This document shows, piece by piece, positions 27,529 through 40,202 of a stretch of 46,457 nucleotides of DNA; positions within the stretch are counted from its first letter, which is position 1; each line of letters begins with the position of its first letter. The translations under genes were made by a program, and so were the position numbers. Origin of the DNA: a virus (lineage: Duplodnaviria > Heunggongvirae > Uroviricota > Caudoviricetes). Under the pieces are notes generated by a model. The model worked only from the letters and a program-made list of their open reading frames with translations. It made no database searches and was not told the origin of the DNA. Location of the stretch: the IMG/VR virus record IMGVR_UViG_2563366799_000009. One strand, written 5' to 3'.

Positions 27529-28059
27529 TTACCGGTTTTGCTCAATCTGCCTAATCCCAGCAAAGTTGTTGTTACCCTTTTCAATGACGGACAGCAGCGG
27601 CTTTATCCACAATACAGCCTGGCAATACGTCATTGAGCTGGAGGCAGCGGAACGATCATCGGCTGCGTCAGGTCTGTCGGTATCGGTGTGCATGGCGCTG
27701 GAACGTAAACGGTACGCGTATTCGAGCAACCCACCAGCAATGTCAGCAGGAACAGGCAGATCACAGGTTTTTTCACGGCGGAGTATCTCCCGATATTCGA
27801 TTACGGTTTCTTCGGTGGTGGTATCGATCAAGGAGTTAAGCCTGTTGGCATGTTCTGCAACCCGATTGAACCGATTGAAGTTGAAAGCCTGATTGGCGAT
27901 CACCTGCCCCTGTAAAGAGTTATCACTTCGCAGAACGTCGTTATCGCTCTGTAGGCTACTGGCGTCTGAGCAACTTTTAACAAGGGCGACTGACAGACCT
28001 GCAATTACTATAACTAGAATAGGGAAGATATTAAATTTCACCGTTCTATCCCCCAGCAC
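27529..28059 (-). CDS. Spanin-like lysis protein (Rz position; alternative GTG start at 28041 gives MKFNIF… signal-like N-terminus)
   Basis: Hydrophobic N-terminus ending …LVKSC, then polar coiled-coil-like region; overlaps the endolysin 3' end; no ATG start. Confidence 0.45.
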   Translation of the reverse strand: MLGDRTVKFNIFPILVIVIAGLSVALVKSCSDASSLQSDNDVLRSDNSLQGQVIANQAFNFNRFNRVAEHANRLNSLIDTTTEETVIEYREILRREKTCDLPVPADIAGGLLEYAYRLRSSAMHTDTDRPDAADDRSAASSSMTYCQAVLWIKPLLSVIEKGNNNFAGIRQIEQNR

Positions 28060-33196: not shown

Positions 33197-35127
33197 GCCA
33201 CCTCCTGCTGGTTGTCAGAACAGAACTCAGGAAGATTTGCCTCAACCAGCGCACGAGCGAACGGCGGCGGTACTGCGTTACCACAGCGCGCTACCTGCTT
33301 GTCTTTGGCGTAACGATTGCCGCGATAGTCCTGATCGATAACGTAGCCGTCAGGGAAGCCCTGCGCCTTATAAAGCTCATGCGGTTGCAGCATGCGCATT
33401 CCGATATCGACGATCTGGTACTTAACCCCCTCGATCGTCACCAGCCATTCATCCTCGCTATCACCGCAGTAGGTTTCGAGGAATGTCCGGACCTCGCCAA
33501 CGTGCTGGCCACCAGCGGTAATAGTCGGCATAGGTGTATCCATGGTCTGACCGTCGCGGCAGGTTCCGCGTAGCTTCACCAGGTGCGACGCAACTACCGC
33601 GTGGTGATCAACAGTAGTGACTGAGTGGGCAGGCTCATCCATACCAACACCCGGCCCCGTGTAATTCCCACCATAGTGCTTCGCCAGGAACGCGCTCACC
33701 GTTGCAAACTTATTACCACCAGCAGTGACCGTGCCGAGCGGGTTATTCAGTTGAATAACACGCGGTTCTTGCCCTGGGCGTTCGCCGTACCCCATCTGGA
33801 TCAGTGTTGGAGTTACCAGCTGCGACTTACCGCCACCACCAGCAGTAATCGTCGCGCTCGGTTCGTCAGCCCTGTGCCCAACACTGGCGCCAAACTGGCG
33901 GGCGATGACCGGAGCAACAACGCACGCGCGGGACTGCTTGAGGATTGTATGAGCGGGTTTATCCAGCGGGCGCGGCTTTGCCTGGTACTCACTGCCGCCA
34001 TTGCCAGCCAGGAACGGTGTCAGGGCGGCCTCAACTACGCCAAGCGCATGCCCATTCCCGCCTGGGCGCGCCGACGTACCAGCGGTGACAGTTGGAACCG
34101 GCTCGGTCACTGGCTGCCCGGTGGCCCCGGTGCGGAATTTAGTAAGATGCGGTACCGCCAGCGCGTAGCCATGCTTTTTAGTGATGGTCTGCAATGGCTC
34201 TAACAACGATTGCCCGCGGAAACAGTCATAACCTCCTTTCGTCGTGGTGTGGTTACACTTCACGATGAAAGGTGATGCACTTTCGATAACAAAGCGCTGG
34301 ATGCCGCGCGCGATACGTTTGAGCGTATTTTCCGCCAGCGGCTTTTTGCGGTCGAAGATGGAACGGGCCGGGATGTTCCAGTCAATGCACTCCGCCGCGG
34401 TACGCCATGGCGCCAGCTTGCCGCTTTGTACTTCCAGTGATTTTGGATCCCCATGAGTCGCTTCAGGCCAATGAATCTTGCGGCCGTCACAACGCATGAC
34501 CATGAAGAAACGCTTTCTGATCGTCGGCGCGCCGTAGTCACAAGCGCGCAGCTCACGATAATCGACCTCATAGCCAAGCCCGGCGATCAGCTGTTGCGCC
34601 TGCTGGCCGTGCGGCTCAATGGCAAGAAATTCACAAACCTCAGCCAGTGCTGGGTGATTCGCCGCGATACCAGTCGACAGCATGCCGACAAATGCCTCAA
34701 ATGTTTCACCAGCACGCTCAGGATCCGGGCGTAATTCTTCATCCAGCAGCGGGCCCCATGTCTTAAATTCTTCGACGTTCTCCAGCATCATGACGCGGGG
34801 ACATACTGACAGCGCCCAGCGCAGGACAATCCACGCCAGCCCGCGAATCTCTTTCTTAACCGGCTTAGCGCCCTTCGCTTTGGAAAAGTGGCGGCAGTCA
34901 GGGCTAAACCAGGCCAGACCGACAGGTTTACCGCTGGTGGCTGCACTTGGGTCAACGTCAAACACCGACTCGCAATAATGCAGCGTGTCCGGGTGATTCG
35001 TCTTATGCATCGCAATAGCGTTTTCGTCGTGGTTGATAGCGATATCCACGCTACGCCCGATCGCCAGTTCAATGCCGGTACTCGCGCCACCACCACCAGC
35101 AAAGTTATCAACGATAATTTCACGCAT
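33193..35127 (-). CDS. DNA (cytosine-5)-methyltransferase with four repeated TxTAGG modules (possibly multispecific)
   Basis: Start at ATG 35127 (MREIIVDNFAGGGG, motif I), SPDCRHFS, ENV; TVTAG/TITAGG/TVTAGG/TITAGG repeats in the variable region. Confidence 0.75.
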   Translation of the reverse strand: MREIIVDNFAGGGGASTGIELAIGRSVDIAINHDENAIAMHKTNHPDTLHYCESVFDVDPSAATSGKPVGLAWFSPDCRHFSKAKGAKPVKKEIRGLAWIVLRWALSVCPRVMMLENVEEFKTWGPLLDEELRPDPERAGETFEAFVGMLSTGIAANHPALAEVCEFLAIEPHGQQAQQLIAGLGYEVDYRELRACDYGAPTIRKRFFMVMRCDGRKIHWPEATHGDPKSLEVQSGKLAPWRTAAECIDWNIPARSIFDRKKPLAENTLKRIARGIQRFVIESASPFIVKCNHTTTKGGYDCFRGQSLLEPLQTITKKHGYALAVPHLTKFRTGATGQPVTEPVPTVTAGTSARPGGNGHALGVVEAALTPFLAGNGGSEYQAKPRPLDKPAHTILKQSRACVVAPVIARQFGASVGHRADEPSATITAGGGGKSQLVTPTLIQMGYGERPGQEPRVIQLNNPLGTVTAGGNKFATVSAFLAKHYGGNYTGPGVGMDEPAHSVTTVDHHAVVASHLVKLRGTCRDGQTMDTPMPTITAGGQHVGEVRTFLETYCGDSEDEWLVTIEGVKYQIVDIGMRMLQPHELYKAQGFPDGYVIDQDYRGNRYAKDKQVARCGNAVPPPFARALVEANLPEFCSDNQQEVA

Positions 35128-36454
35128 TGACGGCCCCCTGCATGCTGTTGAAGAGACCACCAGCGGTCGTGATAATTTCACTCGTCGGCATACGTTCGAG
35201 CCACAGCTGGTTGATATTGGCTTTCAGCTTGTTCTGTTGTGAAACAGGTAGAGCGTCAGCACCTTCAATCTGGTTAAACACCAGGCCAACCTCAAGAGGC
35301 CAAACGCGCGATTCGTTTAACGCCTTGTCCTTTGATTCCTGCGTCTCACGTACATGAGCGCGGATCCCCCGAATATTTGACCATTTGGCTTTATCCAGGC
35401 TTTCCATGGTCGCGATGAATTCACTGTAGTTGATGCCGTATTCTTTCGCAGATTCAACGGCAACCGTGCGAAGCCGCTCTGACATGTCTTGTTTCACGTC
35501 ATCGCTATCAAAGGGCAATGTTTCCAGCCATGCATTAACACCCACCAGGATGCTCTCGCTGATCAGCTTTTTCGCTCTATCGATCGTCAGCGGTGAAACA
35601 TTGGTAAATTCAGGGTTTTCCAGAGAGTCGGCAGCCCAGGTATGACCAAACTTTGACTCGCTGAAGGTGTACTCATCTTTCTCGCCGAACGCCGCGACAA
35701 CACAGGCCCAAGCTTCTACACCACTGGTTTCCAGAATGGCTTTTTGGGTTAATGGCAGTTCTGCCTCTGATTTCTCCGGCACTACCTCAGCGTCCAGCTC
35801 CGGCGCCGCATCAGTTTGCGTTCTTCCCACGGCAAACTGGGCCAGCGACATCGAAGCACGGCCTTTGGCCTCCAGGTCGGTGCGGTTGATGTAACTGAAA
35901 CGTTCACCCCGCCATGTTTTGTCGAAGACCACGATAGCGCCAGCAAAAAATGCGCTGGTTGGCTGCTGCTTTTCGTCTTTCGGCACGAACCATGTAGGAA
36001 GATCGAAACCAATTCGGCCACGGATGAATGTGACGTGATCTGCTTCTTCCGGCCACCACGTCTCACTCGTCGCAGACTTAATGAGAAAAACGTACCGCCC
36101 CCCCTTTTCTCGCATTGCCATAGCGTGGTTAATGATGTGGGTCATTCCGGTAATGGCCTGCTTGTCGTGATACTGAGAGCGGCTGTAAGGCGGGTTGCCA
36201 AACCCGGCACCACCGAGTTCTGCCAGACGCTCAGACCAATCCTGTGTCAGGGCATTATCTTCAGCCGTGTACCATGCTGGGCACTTCGCGTTGCTGTCGT
36301 CGGCAAAAAGGTCCAACACCAGAGGGCCGAACATCGCATTGATACCCCAAAACAACAGATCCGGAGTGCGCCATTGATCGCCGACCTCTTTCAACTCGTG
36401 GGCTGGTCTTGAACGCAGTTCAACCAGCGCGCGGCAGTATTTGCTTTCAATCAT
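35120..36454 (-). CDS. Phage Dam-like N6-adenine DNA methyltransferase (NPPY motif) with C-terminal extension
   Basis: 444 aa; WRTPDLLFW…FGNPPYS…; C-terminal ~200 aa of unknown function. Confidence 0.7.
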   Translation of the reverse strand: MIESKYCRALVELRSRPAHELKEVGDQWRTPDLLFWGINAMFGPLVLDLFADDSNAKCPAWYTAEDNALTQDWSERLAELGGAGFGNPPYSRSQYHDKQAITGMTHIINHAMAMREKGGRYVFLIKSATSETWWPEEADHVTFIRGRIGFDLPTWFVPKDEKQQPTSAFFAGAIVVFDKTWRGERFSYINRTDLEAKGRASMSLAQFAVGRTQTDAAPELDAEVVPEKSEAELPLTQKAILETSGVEAWACVVAAFGEKDEYTFSESKFGHTWAADSLENPEFTNVSPLTIDRAKKLISESILVGVNAWLETLPFDSDDVKQDMSERLRTVAVESAKEYGINYSEFIATMESLDKAKWSNIRGIRAHVRETQESKDKALNESRVWPLEVGLVFNQIEGADALPVSQQNKLKANINQLWLERMPTSEIITTAGGLFNSMQGAVNA

Positions 36455-37383
36455 CCTCTGAACCCCTCTGGAATTTTGGTATCTACCGGGCCGAACTTCA
36501 TCGGGTCATGTTTCTTCTCGCCCCAGCTTTCACGCGGGGGACGGCCTTTTTTATCCCAGCGGATCCCGCTTTGCAGATAACCCTCAAATTTTTTCGGCCC
36601 AAAGAGAGTTTCAGGCCGCATGTACTGATACTGCGCATCGTTGCCGTTCCAGTGTTCATGCTTGAGGTCAATCACCAGCGTCAAGTCGCTGACGGTATAA
36701 CCTTCACGCAGACGCGCACGTATGTTTTCCAAAGAGGTTTTAGATTTCTGGTACCGGGAGCCGCTAACCTGGTTCAAATGAGTTAAAACCAGGATGGCGT
36801 TATCAGTGATCAACACTTCAGGGTCTGGTTGCGGCGCAACCGGACAAGAGGGGTTAATGATCTGTTTGTGATGATCTGAGTAATGATCTGTATAGAGAAT
36901 AGGTTCCGCGACTTCGCGGTTAGGGTTCTGCGGTTCTGCGTTTTCGGTTCCGTGATTTTGCGGAATAGGTTCCGCGACTTCGCATTTCCCGTTCCGCGAT
37001 TCTGCGGAATCCAGTGTTACAGGGAATAAAACGTTAATTAGCGCTTCGCCGTTAATGCGGTAATGCGTTTTTTTTGTACCATTTACCTGGCGCTGGGTCT
37101 TTTGAACTACGTCAGGAAGCCAACGAGTGCAAATCTTGTTTACCAGGCGCTGTACCTGATCTTCACTTACCCCTCGAATCTCAGCGGCAAGCTCACTGTG
37201 TTCTTTGTAGAACCAGCCATCATTCAAGTCGGATTTACCCGACCAGAACACAAGTTGGTTTAGAACAGCACCTAAGGCATGCGCCTGCTGGTCACCTGAG
37301 AAAAAATCGAGGTAAGGCACCGGAATGGTGATGCAGTTCCGTTGTCCCGATAGCGATTGAACGATTTCAAATATCTGGCTCAT
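36451..37383 (-). CDS. Replication initiator / replisome organiser (O-like N-domain, DnaT-like conserved phage C-terminus)
   Basis: 310 aa; iterons inside the coding region encode an EVAEPI repeat. Confidence 0.65.
   Translation of the reverse strand: MSQIFEIVQSLSGQRNCITIPVPYLDFFSGDQQAHALGAVLNQLVFWSGKSDLNDGWFYKEHSELAAEIRGVSEDQVQRLVNKICTRWLPDVVQKTQRQVNGTKKTHYRINGEALINVLFPVTLDSAESRNGKCEVAEPIPQNHGTENAEPQNPNREVAEPILYTDHYSDHHKQIINPSCPVAPQPDPEVLITDNAILVLTHLNQVSGSRYQKSKTSLENIRARLREGYTVSDLTLVIDLKHEHWNGNDAQYQYMRPETLFGPKKFEGYLQSGIRWDKKGRPPRESWGEKKHDPMKFGPVDTKIPEGFRG
36855..37015. repeat. Candidate origin: iterons AATAGGTTCCGCGACTTCGC x2 with related half-repeats, flanked by TGATCTG x3 (three GATC sites)
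   Basis: Identical 20-mers at 36898 and 36964 (66-bp period); GGTTCTGCG x2; TTCCGYGATTYTGCGGAAT x2. Confidence 0.55.
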
Positions 37384-37552
37384 GTTCGTTCGTTATCTCC
37401 CTGAATTTCTGCCTGAATAACTCAAGCGGGCTGAAGCATTCGTGCTCATACCCTGCTCGCAGGTAGATAACACGCCGCGTTTCAGGCTCCCACCGGATAA
37501 CCCGAACGGGGATACCTCTGTGGTCTTTGAACCTTCGGTTAACTTCGCGCAT
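37367..37552 (-). CDS. Small hypothetical protein (61 aa)
   Basis: ATG with GGAAGG about 11 nt upstream; overlaps the replication gene start; may be spurious. Confidence 0.3.
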   Translation of the reverse strand: MREVNRRFKDHRGIPVRVIRWEPETRRVIYLRAGYEHECFSPLELFRQKFREITNEHEPDI

Positions 37553-38511: not shown

Positions 38512-38610
38512 GAAGCCTCCTTAGCTAAGTTTGGTTAGATATTAATAACCAATCTAACTTTGGTCAATAAAAACTAAGATTACTTAGTCTTTTTTAAATT
38601 TGGTGCTTTC
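38512..38610. promoter_or_regulatory. OR-like operator/promoter region between cro and cI with CTAAG-type sites; cI has no Shine-Dalgarno
   Basis: CTAAGTTTGGTTAG (38525-38538), CTAACTTTGGTCA (38554-38566), ACTAAG-ATTA-CTTAGT (38573-38588). Confidence 0.6.
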
Positions 38611-39237
38611 ATGGAAACGGTTGGTCAGCGCATTAAAGCCCTACGCAGGGTTACAAAAACCTCTCAAAAAGAACTGGGTAAGTTCTGCGGAGTGAGTGAC
38701 GTAGCAGTGGGTTATTGGGAAAAGGATGTGAATATCCCAAACGGAGAATCGCTGGTTAAGCTGGCTAAATTCTTCAATACATCAATAGATTACATTCTTT
38801 ACGGCACTGAATTTGAAGGGACCCTCATAACTAAAATGAGGCGTGTGCCCGTGATTTCTTGGGTTCAAGCTGGGCAGTTTACGGAATGTAAGGCCGCTGA
38901 TTTATTCAGTGATGTCGATAAATGGGTTGAAACCTCACTACGCATTGGGGATAGCTCGTTCGCTTTAGAGGTCAAAGGGGATTCAATGACCAATCCAAAT
39001 GGCCTCCCAACAATTCCTGAAGGGGCAACCGTTATTGTCGATCCAGATGCCGAACCCCTTCATGGCAAGATTGTTGTTGCGCGTATTGATGGCACTAACG
39101 AAGCGACTGTTAAAAAACTGGTCATTGATGGCCCACAAAAATTTTTAGTCCCACTAAATCCTCGCTACCCCAACATCCCGATCAATGGTAACTGCCTCAT
39201 TATTGGAGTAGTTAAAGGCGTTCAGTACGAACTCTAA
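38611..39237 (+). CDS. cI: CI-type repressor (HTH plus S24 LexA-like autopeptidase domain)
   Basis: 208 aa; N-terminal HTH; C-terminal GDSM and …VKKL… Ser/Lys dyad region. Confidence 0.8.
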   Translation: METVGQRIKALRRVTKTSQKELGKFCGVSDVAVGYWEKDVNIPNGESLVKLAKFFNTSIDYILYGTEFEGTLITKMRRVPVISWVQAGQFTECKAADLFSDVDKWVETSLRIGDSSFALEVKGDSMTNPNGLPTIPEGATVIVDPDAEPLHGKIVVARIDGTNEATVKKLVIDGPQKFLVPLNPRYPNIPINGNCLIIGVVKGVQYEL

Positions 39238-39261
39238 TCCCCTTCCGCTCTTCCTCTAAGC

Positions 39262-39320
39262 ATCAAGCTAAGTTTAGTTTGATGTTTTCGCTTGACCAAT
39301 AAACTAAGTTAAGTTAGATT
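39262..39320 (+). promoter_or_regulatory. OL/PL-like operator-promoter: CTAAGTTTAGTTTGA and ACTAAGTTAAGTTAG sites overlapping TTGACC-17-TAGATT
   Basis: Same CTAAG half-sites as OR; -35/-10 spacing read by eye. Confidence 0.5.
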
Positions 39321-39449
39321 TTTTTCTGTCGACACCAAACCACCGCGCCTGATGTGGTTAAAAGCAGGCCAAAGCAATATGAAGTGATCCCTGTTCTGGC
39401 TGTTCACTTTCCCCTGAGGGTGACAGCCAGCTTTTTAAGGGCACAACGT

Positions 39450-39514
39450 GAAAGCGCACTCCATCAACTATCGGTTGTGGATGACAGGTAAGTAAACAGG
39501 CGGAGTGCGCTTCC
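39450..39514 (+). promoter_or_regulatory. Structured element A: 11-12-bp stem (GAAAGCGCACTCC / GGAGTGCGCTTCC) with 39-nt loop
   Basis: Inverted repeat read directly; copy of element B. Confidence 0.4.
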
Positions 39515-39734
39515 AGTTGTGATGAATTGCAGCCCTTTGAGGCAACCAGAAGATAAGCACCTGGCGTCACAGCACTATTGAACATGGCGAAAGCCGAAAG
39601 ACTTGAAGGCGGTTTTCTCAGGTTGCGCGCTAAAGAATAGCGGGGAGAACCTGGGGCGGAGAGCAAACCCCGCGATGCAGGACTTGAAATACCTCACAGA
39701 CCAATAAGCCGTCTGGCAGCGTAACTGCCCTTTA

Positions 39735-39776
39735 CATCAGCCCCGGCGAGGTGGCGCCGACGGACCGGGGCTGATG
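39735..39776 (+). promoter_or_regulatory. Perfect 12-bp inverted repeat CATCAGCCCCGG-N18-CCGGGGCTGATG
   Basis: Read directly; no U-run on either strand. Confidence 0.4.
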
Positions 39777-39792
39777 AATCGCAACACAACAT

Positions 39793-39853
39793 GAAAGCGC
39801 ATTCCTCTTTTCACTGATGGGGATCGGTTTGTTACCTGGCGGAGTGCGCTTCC
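39793..39853 (+). promoter_or_regulatory. Structured element B: same stem as A with one C-to-T change (G-U wobble on the + transcript), 35-nt loop
   Basis: Flanking CACAAC(R)TG and AGTTGTG also conserved with element A. Confidence 0.4.
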
Positions 39854-40202
39854 AGTTGTGGTAATGCGGCTCTGCGCACGTGACGAGGCCAATAAGTTTA
39901 TTTCAACTTTGAAATGAATACGTTTCTTAAGGTGTAGCGTCGTCGGTTCTGGCCGGTCCGGCAGGTGGAGGCACCACCGCCACAACAACATCATTGCTGT
40001 GTGTAGTCTTTGCCCATCACATCGGTGGGCACCTTTTTTACACAAGAGACAAGGGCATCACCGGGCGACGGGCTCATTCCCCAATCCACCCGGGCGCTAT
40101 GGAAATGGACCTCCTACCCATAGCCGAAGCGCAGGTGCCCTTTTCTGTTGTGTATGGAGAAGTTCCACTGGCGGTGGCAGCCGCCTCACAGAGGGTTAAA
40201 CC

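Follow-up and report, generated by a model that had tools for sequence, protein, structure and literature searches.

A probable replication origin on the lambda plan, with its own iteron specificity, inside the initiator gene of an enterobacterial prophage

Phage lambda carries its replication origin within the central part of the initiator gene O, where the GenBank annotation and sequence fetched for this study place four 18-bp iterons 20–24 bp apart, then an AT-rich stretch without GATC and then a palindrome (tcgtcagagaattctggcgaatcctctgac). Our study concerns a 46,457-nucleotide stretch of DNA from a virus of the Caudoviricetes (IMG/VR record IMGVR_UViG_2563366799_000009; hereafter the window), in which a set of repeats lies inside the replication initiator gene rep (36451–37383, minus strand, 310 aa). 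A preliminary description of the window had likened these repeats to the iterons and AT-rich segment within lambda O, both of which are seen in the fetched ori-lambda, and had proposed that the segment is the phage origin. Comparative analysis supports that proposal. The repeats are, with high probability, the origin of bidirectional (theta) replication of this prophage, built on the lambda plan within its own initiator gene; this reading draws on the parts of ori-lambda occurring in the same order and gene position, on constraint that acts upon the DNA, and on co-variation between the iterons and the N-terminal domain (N-domain) of the initiator.

As in lambda and the Stx phages, the presumed origin stands mid-way along the initiator gene and comprises direct repeats with dyad symmetry (four to six in those phages) at a spacing of roughly two helical turns, followed on the promoter-distal side by an AT-rich element and then a palindrome. 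Iteron number is naturally variable in both, iteron specificity goes with the N-domain, and the C-terminal domain (C-domain) is exchangeable. The window differs from lambda in having five iterons with a strict 22-bp period and the core CGC-N6-GCG, three conserved ACAGATC repeats in its AT-rich element, a C-domain of the Phg_2220_C family, an N-domain outside family PF04492, and no lambda P homologue after rep. The novelty is a lambdoid origin whose specificity family had not been described before, and the known lambda arrangement is extended rather than overturned.

Other described systems resemble the window in part. The origins oriC and P1 oriR reportedly carry short GATC repeats in an AT-rich melting region beside the initiator sites, a comparison said to go back to Abeles and Austin in 1987 and Abeles et al. 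in 1993, and P1 encodes its own Dam. The window departs from both in having no DnaA boxes, in its weak likeness to the oriC 13-mer and in GATC sites that are dispensable in a sister clade. The DnaD-like initiators of Gram-positive phages, like the predicted initiator of the window, combine a winged-helix N-domain with a helical C-domain; the homology is distant, however, and the window differs in its enterobacterial host and its gene-internal origin in the lambda layout. A further likeness is to the 'initiator-solo' phage replication modules reportedly described by Weigel and Seitz in 2006, in that the analysis found neither a helicase gene nor a loader gene encoded by the phage. To our knowledge, no member of the N-domain family studied here has been characterized, and a literature search found no paper on this family or its origin.

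The array consists of five 22-bp iterons (36897–37006). An identical 21-mer, GAATAGGTTCCGCGACTTCGC, occurs at 36897 and 36963, 66 bp apart, where the chance expectation for exact 20-mer repeat pairs in the window is about 0.001. The preliminary description had recorded this pair as 20-mers, and the related half-repeats that it mentioned are three further units of the same array. Each iteron forms an imperfect dyad, TTCCGC-N6-GCGGAA, when the final bases of the preceding unit are included. In gene orientation (minus strand) they are iteron 1 (CGCAGAATCGCGGAACGGGAAA, 36985–37006), iteron 2 (TGCGAAGTCGCGGAACCTATTC, 36963–36984), which is one of the two identical 21-mers, iteron 3 (CGCAAAATCACGGAACCGAAAA, 36941–36962), iteron 4 (CGCAGAACCGCAGAACCCTAAC, 36919–36940), which is the most degenerate, and iteron 5 (CGCGAAGTCGCGGAACCTATTC, 36897–36918), which adjoins the AT-rich segment. 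The motif CGCRAARTCGCGGAAC, allowing up to three mismatches, had six matches in the window, five of which are the array, compared to a mean of 1.66 after shuffling. In motif and tandem-repeat scans of the 46-kb window, neither a second cluster of iterons nor a rival candidate origin emerged, and the array was the only tandem repeat with a period that is not a multiple of three. The sole other tandem repeat in the window (19342–19435) has a period of 27 bp and, this being a multiple of three, is probably a coding repeat.

Directly past the array in gene orientation the sequence is TATACAGATCATTACTCAGATCATCACAAACAGATCATTAAC, and here lies the presumed AT-rich unwinding element (36852–36896). It carries three ATGATCTG repeats and in gene orientation reads TATACAGATC..TCAGATC..ACAGATC; the GATC sites of the repeats at 36859, 36873 and 36885 are the threefold TGATCTG of the preliminary description. 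The GC content of the element is 0.30–0.325, compared to 0.51 for the window; the least stable 45-bp segment of the rep gene starts at 36855, and 36852–36896 is among the least stable 1.5 % of the whole window. The AT-rich motif is kept even in relatives with diverged iterons. A bare cluster of three GATC sites (26–30 bp) is not significant window-wide, as random placement of the 222 sites gave an equally tight cluster in 76 % of trials (P=0.76), and a claim that the cluster is a statistical outlier was dropped. The non-random part is the longer repeat, ATGATCTG three times, its place beside the iterons and its conservation in relatives. A claim of oriC-like 13-mers in the element was likewise dropped, as the likeness to the consensus GATCTnTTnTTTT is weak, with three mismatches in the first repeat and more than three in the others.

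A palindrome with 11-bp arms, GTCTGGTTGCG-c-CGCAACCGGAC (36823–36845), flanks the AT-rich segment. Most of the 26 relatives also have a dyad here, its arms occurring in at least six sequence versions, and the mean dyad score at this position was 5.96, compared to 3.9 for control windows. In relatives such as L009 and L018–L024 the palindrome is nearly identical to that of the right arm of ori-lambda. By analogy, the palindrome of the window is the counterpart of that right-arm palindrome in ori-lambda.

Constraint on the segment was quantified by gathering 27 homologous loci (from Escherichia, Citrobacter, Serratia, Proteus, Morganella, Providencia, Erwinia and others) and aligning the codons of the window with those of 25 of them (26 sequences). 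Third-position entropy was 1.45 bits in the N-domain, 0.85 bits in the iterons, 0.67 bits in the AT-rich element and 1.29 bits beyond it, and the ratio of third-position to first/second-position variability fell from 2.5 to ~1.05 in the origin (Mann–Whitney p=3e-13). The four-fold-degenerate codon of Thr165 (ACA) was invariant, whereas those of Gly102 and Thr103 were saturated. A period of 22 bp does not divide evenly into codons, so that the iterons occupy all three reading frames, units 1 to 5 being read in frames (offsets) 2, 0, 1, 2 and 0, and the EVAEPI peptide repeat of the preliminary description, found at aa 135–140 and 157–162, is encoded only by units 2 and 5. Iterons in every frame, together with a drop in third-position variability exactly at the origin, argue for selection on the DNA rather than the peptide, and the pattern is what selection at the DNA level would be expected to produce.

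Comparison of related loci indicates that iteron sequence co-varies with the N-domain of the initiator. Among 80 viral contigs with a common C-domain there were three N-domain types, each with its own iterons and its own AT-rich repeat (ACAGATC three times in the window type; GGATCCGTCAG and GATCCATCAG; CAGGAGATTACACAG twice). The third initiator type (L192:928–1902 and 2369–3244) has iterons of ~22 bp built on CCGCAAAC, and LLS-type phages have an HTH_36 N-domain, iterons GTCAGAATCTGAC with a 15-bp period and another AT-rich element at the same position. Within the N-domain family of the window the 22-bp period is kept, as is the count of five iterons in most lineages, and the dyad cores vary symmetrically (CGC-GAAGTC-GCG, GGC-AATATT-GCC, GGC-ACAAAC-GCC, GGC-TCTTAA-GCC and GTC-GAAAGT-GAG), as would be expected for a symmetric dimer co-evolving with its site.

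The same comparisons reveal exchange of modules. DNA similarity to the Escherichia coli phages LLS, Eeyore and Flotzy and to several E. coli prophages is confined to the C-terminal 405 nt of rep and ends at 36855, the point at which palindrome and AT-rich element meet; this C-domain segment has 88 % DNA identity with phages of differing N-domain and iterons. Natural chimeras were also found, in which an N-domain and origin of the window type are joined to a lambda O-type C-domain (P0051 against lambda O, E=4e-26). The modules recombine cleanly, with the N-domain, iterons and melting element moving as one and the palindrome and C-domain as another. A natural variant has lost 66 bp between the identical 21-mers and retains two iterons as well as the AT-rich element and palindrome; its protein, P0004, occurs on 12 contigs, one instance of which was read (L051:3001–3864), and the variant echoes the minimal origin of lambda (PMC7466680).

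Two observations accompany the chimeras. In L007 and L061–L070 (rep from 2501 or 3001), the gene after rep is Dam rather than a P homologue, and a tblastn search with lambda P was negative. One homologue bears the name 'replication protein 15', and homologues of this kind have a lambda O-type C-domain as their common part; a link to phi80 gp15 suggested by that name was rejected, as a tblastn search of the phage collection with the N-domain did not list phi80.

The rep product matched the PHROG families 428 ('replication initiation protein', E=3e-51) and 9773 ('replication initiation O-like', E=4e-33), in agreement with the placement of the repeats within a replication gene by the preliminary description. 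AlphaFold2, run on a 24-sequence alignment, predicted a folded N-domain (aa 19–122) with a predicted local distance difference test score (pLDDT) of 73–93, a disordered stretch (aa 123–192, pLDDT <50) between the two folded domains, and a helical C-domain (aa 193–290). The predicted winged-helix DNA-binding N-domain, taken as aa 1–122, is encoded at 37018–37383 and the C-domain at 36514–36807 (both minus strand), the latter delimited by AlphaFold2, DNA comparison and a Pfam match to Phg_2220_C at aa 199–271. The iterons, AT-rich element and palindrome encode aa 126–187, within the predicted disordered linker. The first ~120 residues matched no Pfam or NCBIfam model, and a sequence search of solved structures returned nothing useful. 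The N-domain has ~30 % identity to DnaD-like initiators of Staphylococcus phages, and PHROG families named 'DnaD-like helicase loader' matched both halves of the protein. By HHpred, the N-domain of lambda O is assigned to HTH_36 and its C-domain to '_2220_C' (PMC5509034), so the overall architecture of the rep product is O-like.

A mechanism can be proposed on this basis. Dimers of the winged-helix N-domain would bind the five iterons, whose spacing of two helical turns would place them on one face of the DNA. Binding would wrap the DNA into an O-some-like complex, and the stress of wrapping would melt the adjoining AT-rich element, aided by transcription from a pR-like promoter, while the Phg_2220_C C-domain would recruit the host helicase system. 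The GATC sites in the melting element would be methylated by host or phage Dam and may tune melting or SeqA binding. Together, these proposals provide a concrete, testable origin for a widespread and uncharacterized family of enterobacterial prophage initiators, mEp390 included, whose genes are presently annotated merely as 'conserved phage C-terminal domain protein'.

Several points weigh against the origin reading. Binding, melting and origin activity are all inferred for this initiator family from sequence. The sequences compared in the entropy and palindrome tests are related, and the p-values consequently overstate independence; the AT-rich element is only moderately AT-rich (30–33 % GC). 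The winged-helix assignment of the N-domain is tentative, as all Foldseek matches were winged-helix regulators with weak E-values (8e-3 and above). The protein had no match to Phage_rep_O (PF04492), which lambda O matches at 6e-36, and BLASTP of the protein against lambda O gave E=0.52, i.e. no detectable similarity. No DnaA box stands by the array, the nearest TTWTNCACA matches in the window being at 27603 and 40036, and a DnaA-assisted origin was rejected for this reason. A tblastn search with lambda P was negative in all related loci but one, and domain scans of the flanking open reading frames (ORFs) made no DnaB-like, DnaC-like or other loader gene evident downstream, such that the locus has the look of an 'initiator-solo' module. 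In mEp390, an isolated lambdoid phage of E. coli, rep is of this kind and no loader gene is annotated after it.

Among the alternative explanations, the one that survives best is that the origin is gated by methylation. Here, Dam methylation and SeqA at the three GATC sites would control melting or re-initiation, and the translationally coupled phage Dam would keep the origin fully methylated; we consider this possible, at well below even chances. Its appeal begins with the GATC sites, which at repeats 1 and 3 are kept in every GATC-type relative with the residue after Asp varying between H, Q, L and P; the codons for this residue all start with C, giving a first-position entropy of 0.48 bits, compared to 1.85 bits for the amino acid. 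Among the 80 loci sharing the C-domain, a second type of initiator, unrelated to the first, has two GATC sites in 22/22 distinct AT-rich-element sequences, and the number of GATC sites per element is bimodal, at either 0 or mostly 2–3. Of 58 dereplicated GATC-type loci, 41 have a PF05869 Dam after rep, compared to none of the 39 GATC-less ones, and in the window the dam ATG overlaps the rep stop codon (ATGA). For such gating, oriC and P1 oriR offer precedents (titles cited in PMC2865523).

However, a sister clade (L008, L026, L033, L035, L058–L060 and L075–L110; 39 loci after dereplication) has the same architecture, and its AT-rich element, which comes after the LYTD codons, reads GACT rather than GATC in each of the three repeats. 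Phage mEp390 (L087) belongs to this clade. In 29/39 of these GATC-less loci, rep is followed by an MT-A70 methylase 78 % identical to the phiES15 enzyme, which is among the homologues of a GATC-specific MT-A70 enzyme (PMC7556043). The third initiator type also has an AT-rich element without GATC, yet an E. coli-Dam-like, D12-class methylase lies 470 bp after rep (L192; motifs FLKWAGGKY...DPPY). The co-variation of Dam with origin GATC sites therefore looked strong only until these MT-A70 and D12-class enzymes were found in GATC-less lineages. Three unrelated families (PF05869 Dam, MT-A70 and D12-class) follow rep regardless of GATC, which suggests that an adenine methylase is general to this slot. 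Shared descent also confounds the Dam association; every host is a Dam-positive member of the Enterobacterales, which makes a phage Dam unnecessary for methylating these sites; and the GATC cluster on its own, as noted above, does not stand out from the rest of the window.

For the methylation-sensitive initiation suggested in the preliminary description, the evidence is mixed. GATC is conserved in the 58 dereplicated GATC-type loci and in the second initiator type, and absent from the 39 sister-clade loci and the third type; the argument from a neighbouring Dam is not supported, as methylases occur after rep with or without GATC in the origin. Sites kept against codon degeneracy and recurring in a second initiator type make a methylation-related role possible, and the sequence comparisons suggest that methylation may modulate this origin and is not required by the origin family. 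A more specific proposal, which we hold as speculative and rate slightly below gating itself, is that the melting element exists in two interchangeable states. One would be methylatable, with 2–3 GATC repeats, and would have arisen in at least two unrelated initiator types; the other, with GACT or other repeats, would not be methylatable, and Dam methylation and SeqA binding would gate melting or re-firing of the methylatable state. If this were true, the rep-coupled methylase would be part of the replication module, not an anti-restriction accessory. Within the same proposal, the specificity of the melting-element repeat to each initiator type is a hint that the initiator may read the melted single strand in a sequence-specific way, as plasmid Rep proteins do. 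The GATC and GACT sister clades represent a natural experiment on adenine methylation at a phage origin.

It is improbable that the array binds the initiator mainly for autoregulation, copy control or the exclusion of related phages, with replication starting elsewhere. Precedents for such roles exist, in that plasmid iterons also serve copy control and handcuffing (PMC4980987) and cloned copies of the lambda origin inhibit related phages (PMC3349717, PMC4488673). The array of the window is, however, tied to a conserved element of low stability and a palindrome in lambda order, is not close to the rep promoter, and has no competing iteron cluster or candidate origin elsewhere in the window. 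Most improbable of all is a low-complexity peptide repeat (EVAEPI and similar) without a DNA function, which would fit a region that encodes a disordered linker and two units that give an in-frame peptide repeat, but not the spread of units over all three frames, synonymous positions constrained as much as non-synonymous ones, dyad symmetry in every unit or repeats that switch wholesale with the type of N-domain.

The gene order around rep also resembles that of lambda, whose O likewise stands after cro and cII. Ahead of rep in the window are a divergent cI-like repressor gene (38611–39237), cro (P22_Cro), a cII-like gene (Phage_CP76) and a DUF4222 gene (37367–37552, minus strand, 61 aa), which overlaps the rep start by 17 nt. 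In most related loci a DUF4222 gene stands directly upstream of rep. A pR-like promoter upstream of cro (38539–38567, minus strand) is identified by consensus match only, at 9/12 positions; standing ahead of cro, cII, DUF4222 and rep, it would give a transcript that crosses the origin.

After rep come a Dam-domain methylase fusion, a C5 methylase and RusA. The first of these is a putative phage N6-adenine methyltransferase of 444 aa (35120–36454, minus strand), in which just aa 19–199 match the Dam domain (PF05869, TIGR01712) and the remaining extension of ~245 residues has no Pfam match. The first 100 nt of this gene include an exact match, GATCTGTTGTTTT (36349–36361, minus strand), to the oriC 13-mer consensus, which in gene orientation places the match ~500 bp downstream of the array. 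It is the sole 13-mer with zero mismatches in the window, and by our own estimate ~0.02 would be expected by chance.

Among close relatives, E. coli 2015-01-2097 (NZ_LR881940) has a rep gene with 98.5 % identity to that of the window. One further locus with a 99 %-identical rep region, L004 (DAINBV010000046.1, a 44.6-kb contig), is filed under a 'Geobacteraceae' metagenome-assembled genome. This filing is probably a binning error, as all other hosts in the set are Enterobacterales. A scan of the whole window against Rfam matched zero RNA families. Past the cI-like repressor gene, ~1 kb of the window (39240–40200) holds just short overlapping ORFs that look spurious, and a promoter-like site is present at 39292–39320 on the plus strand.

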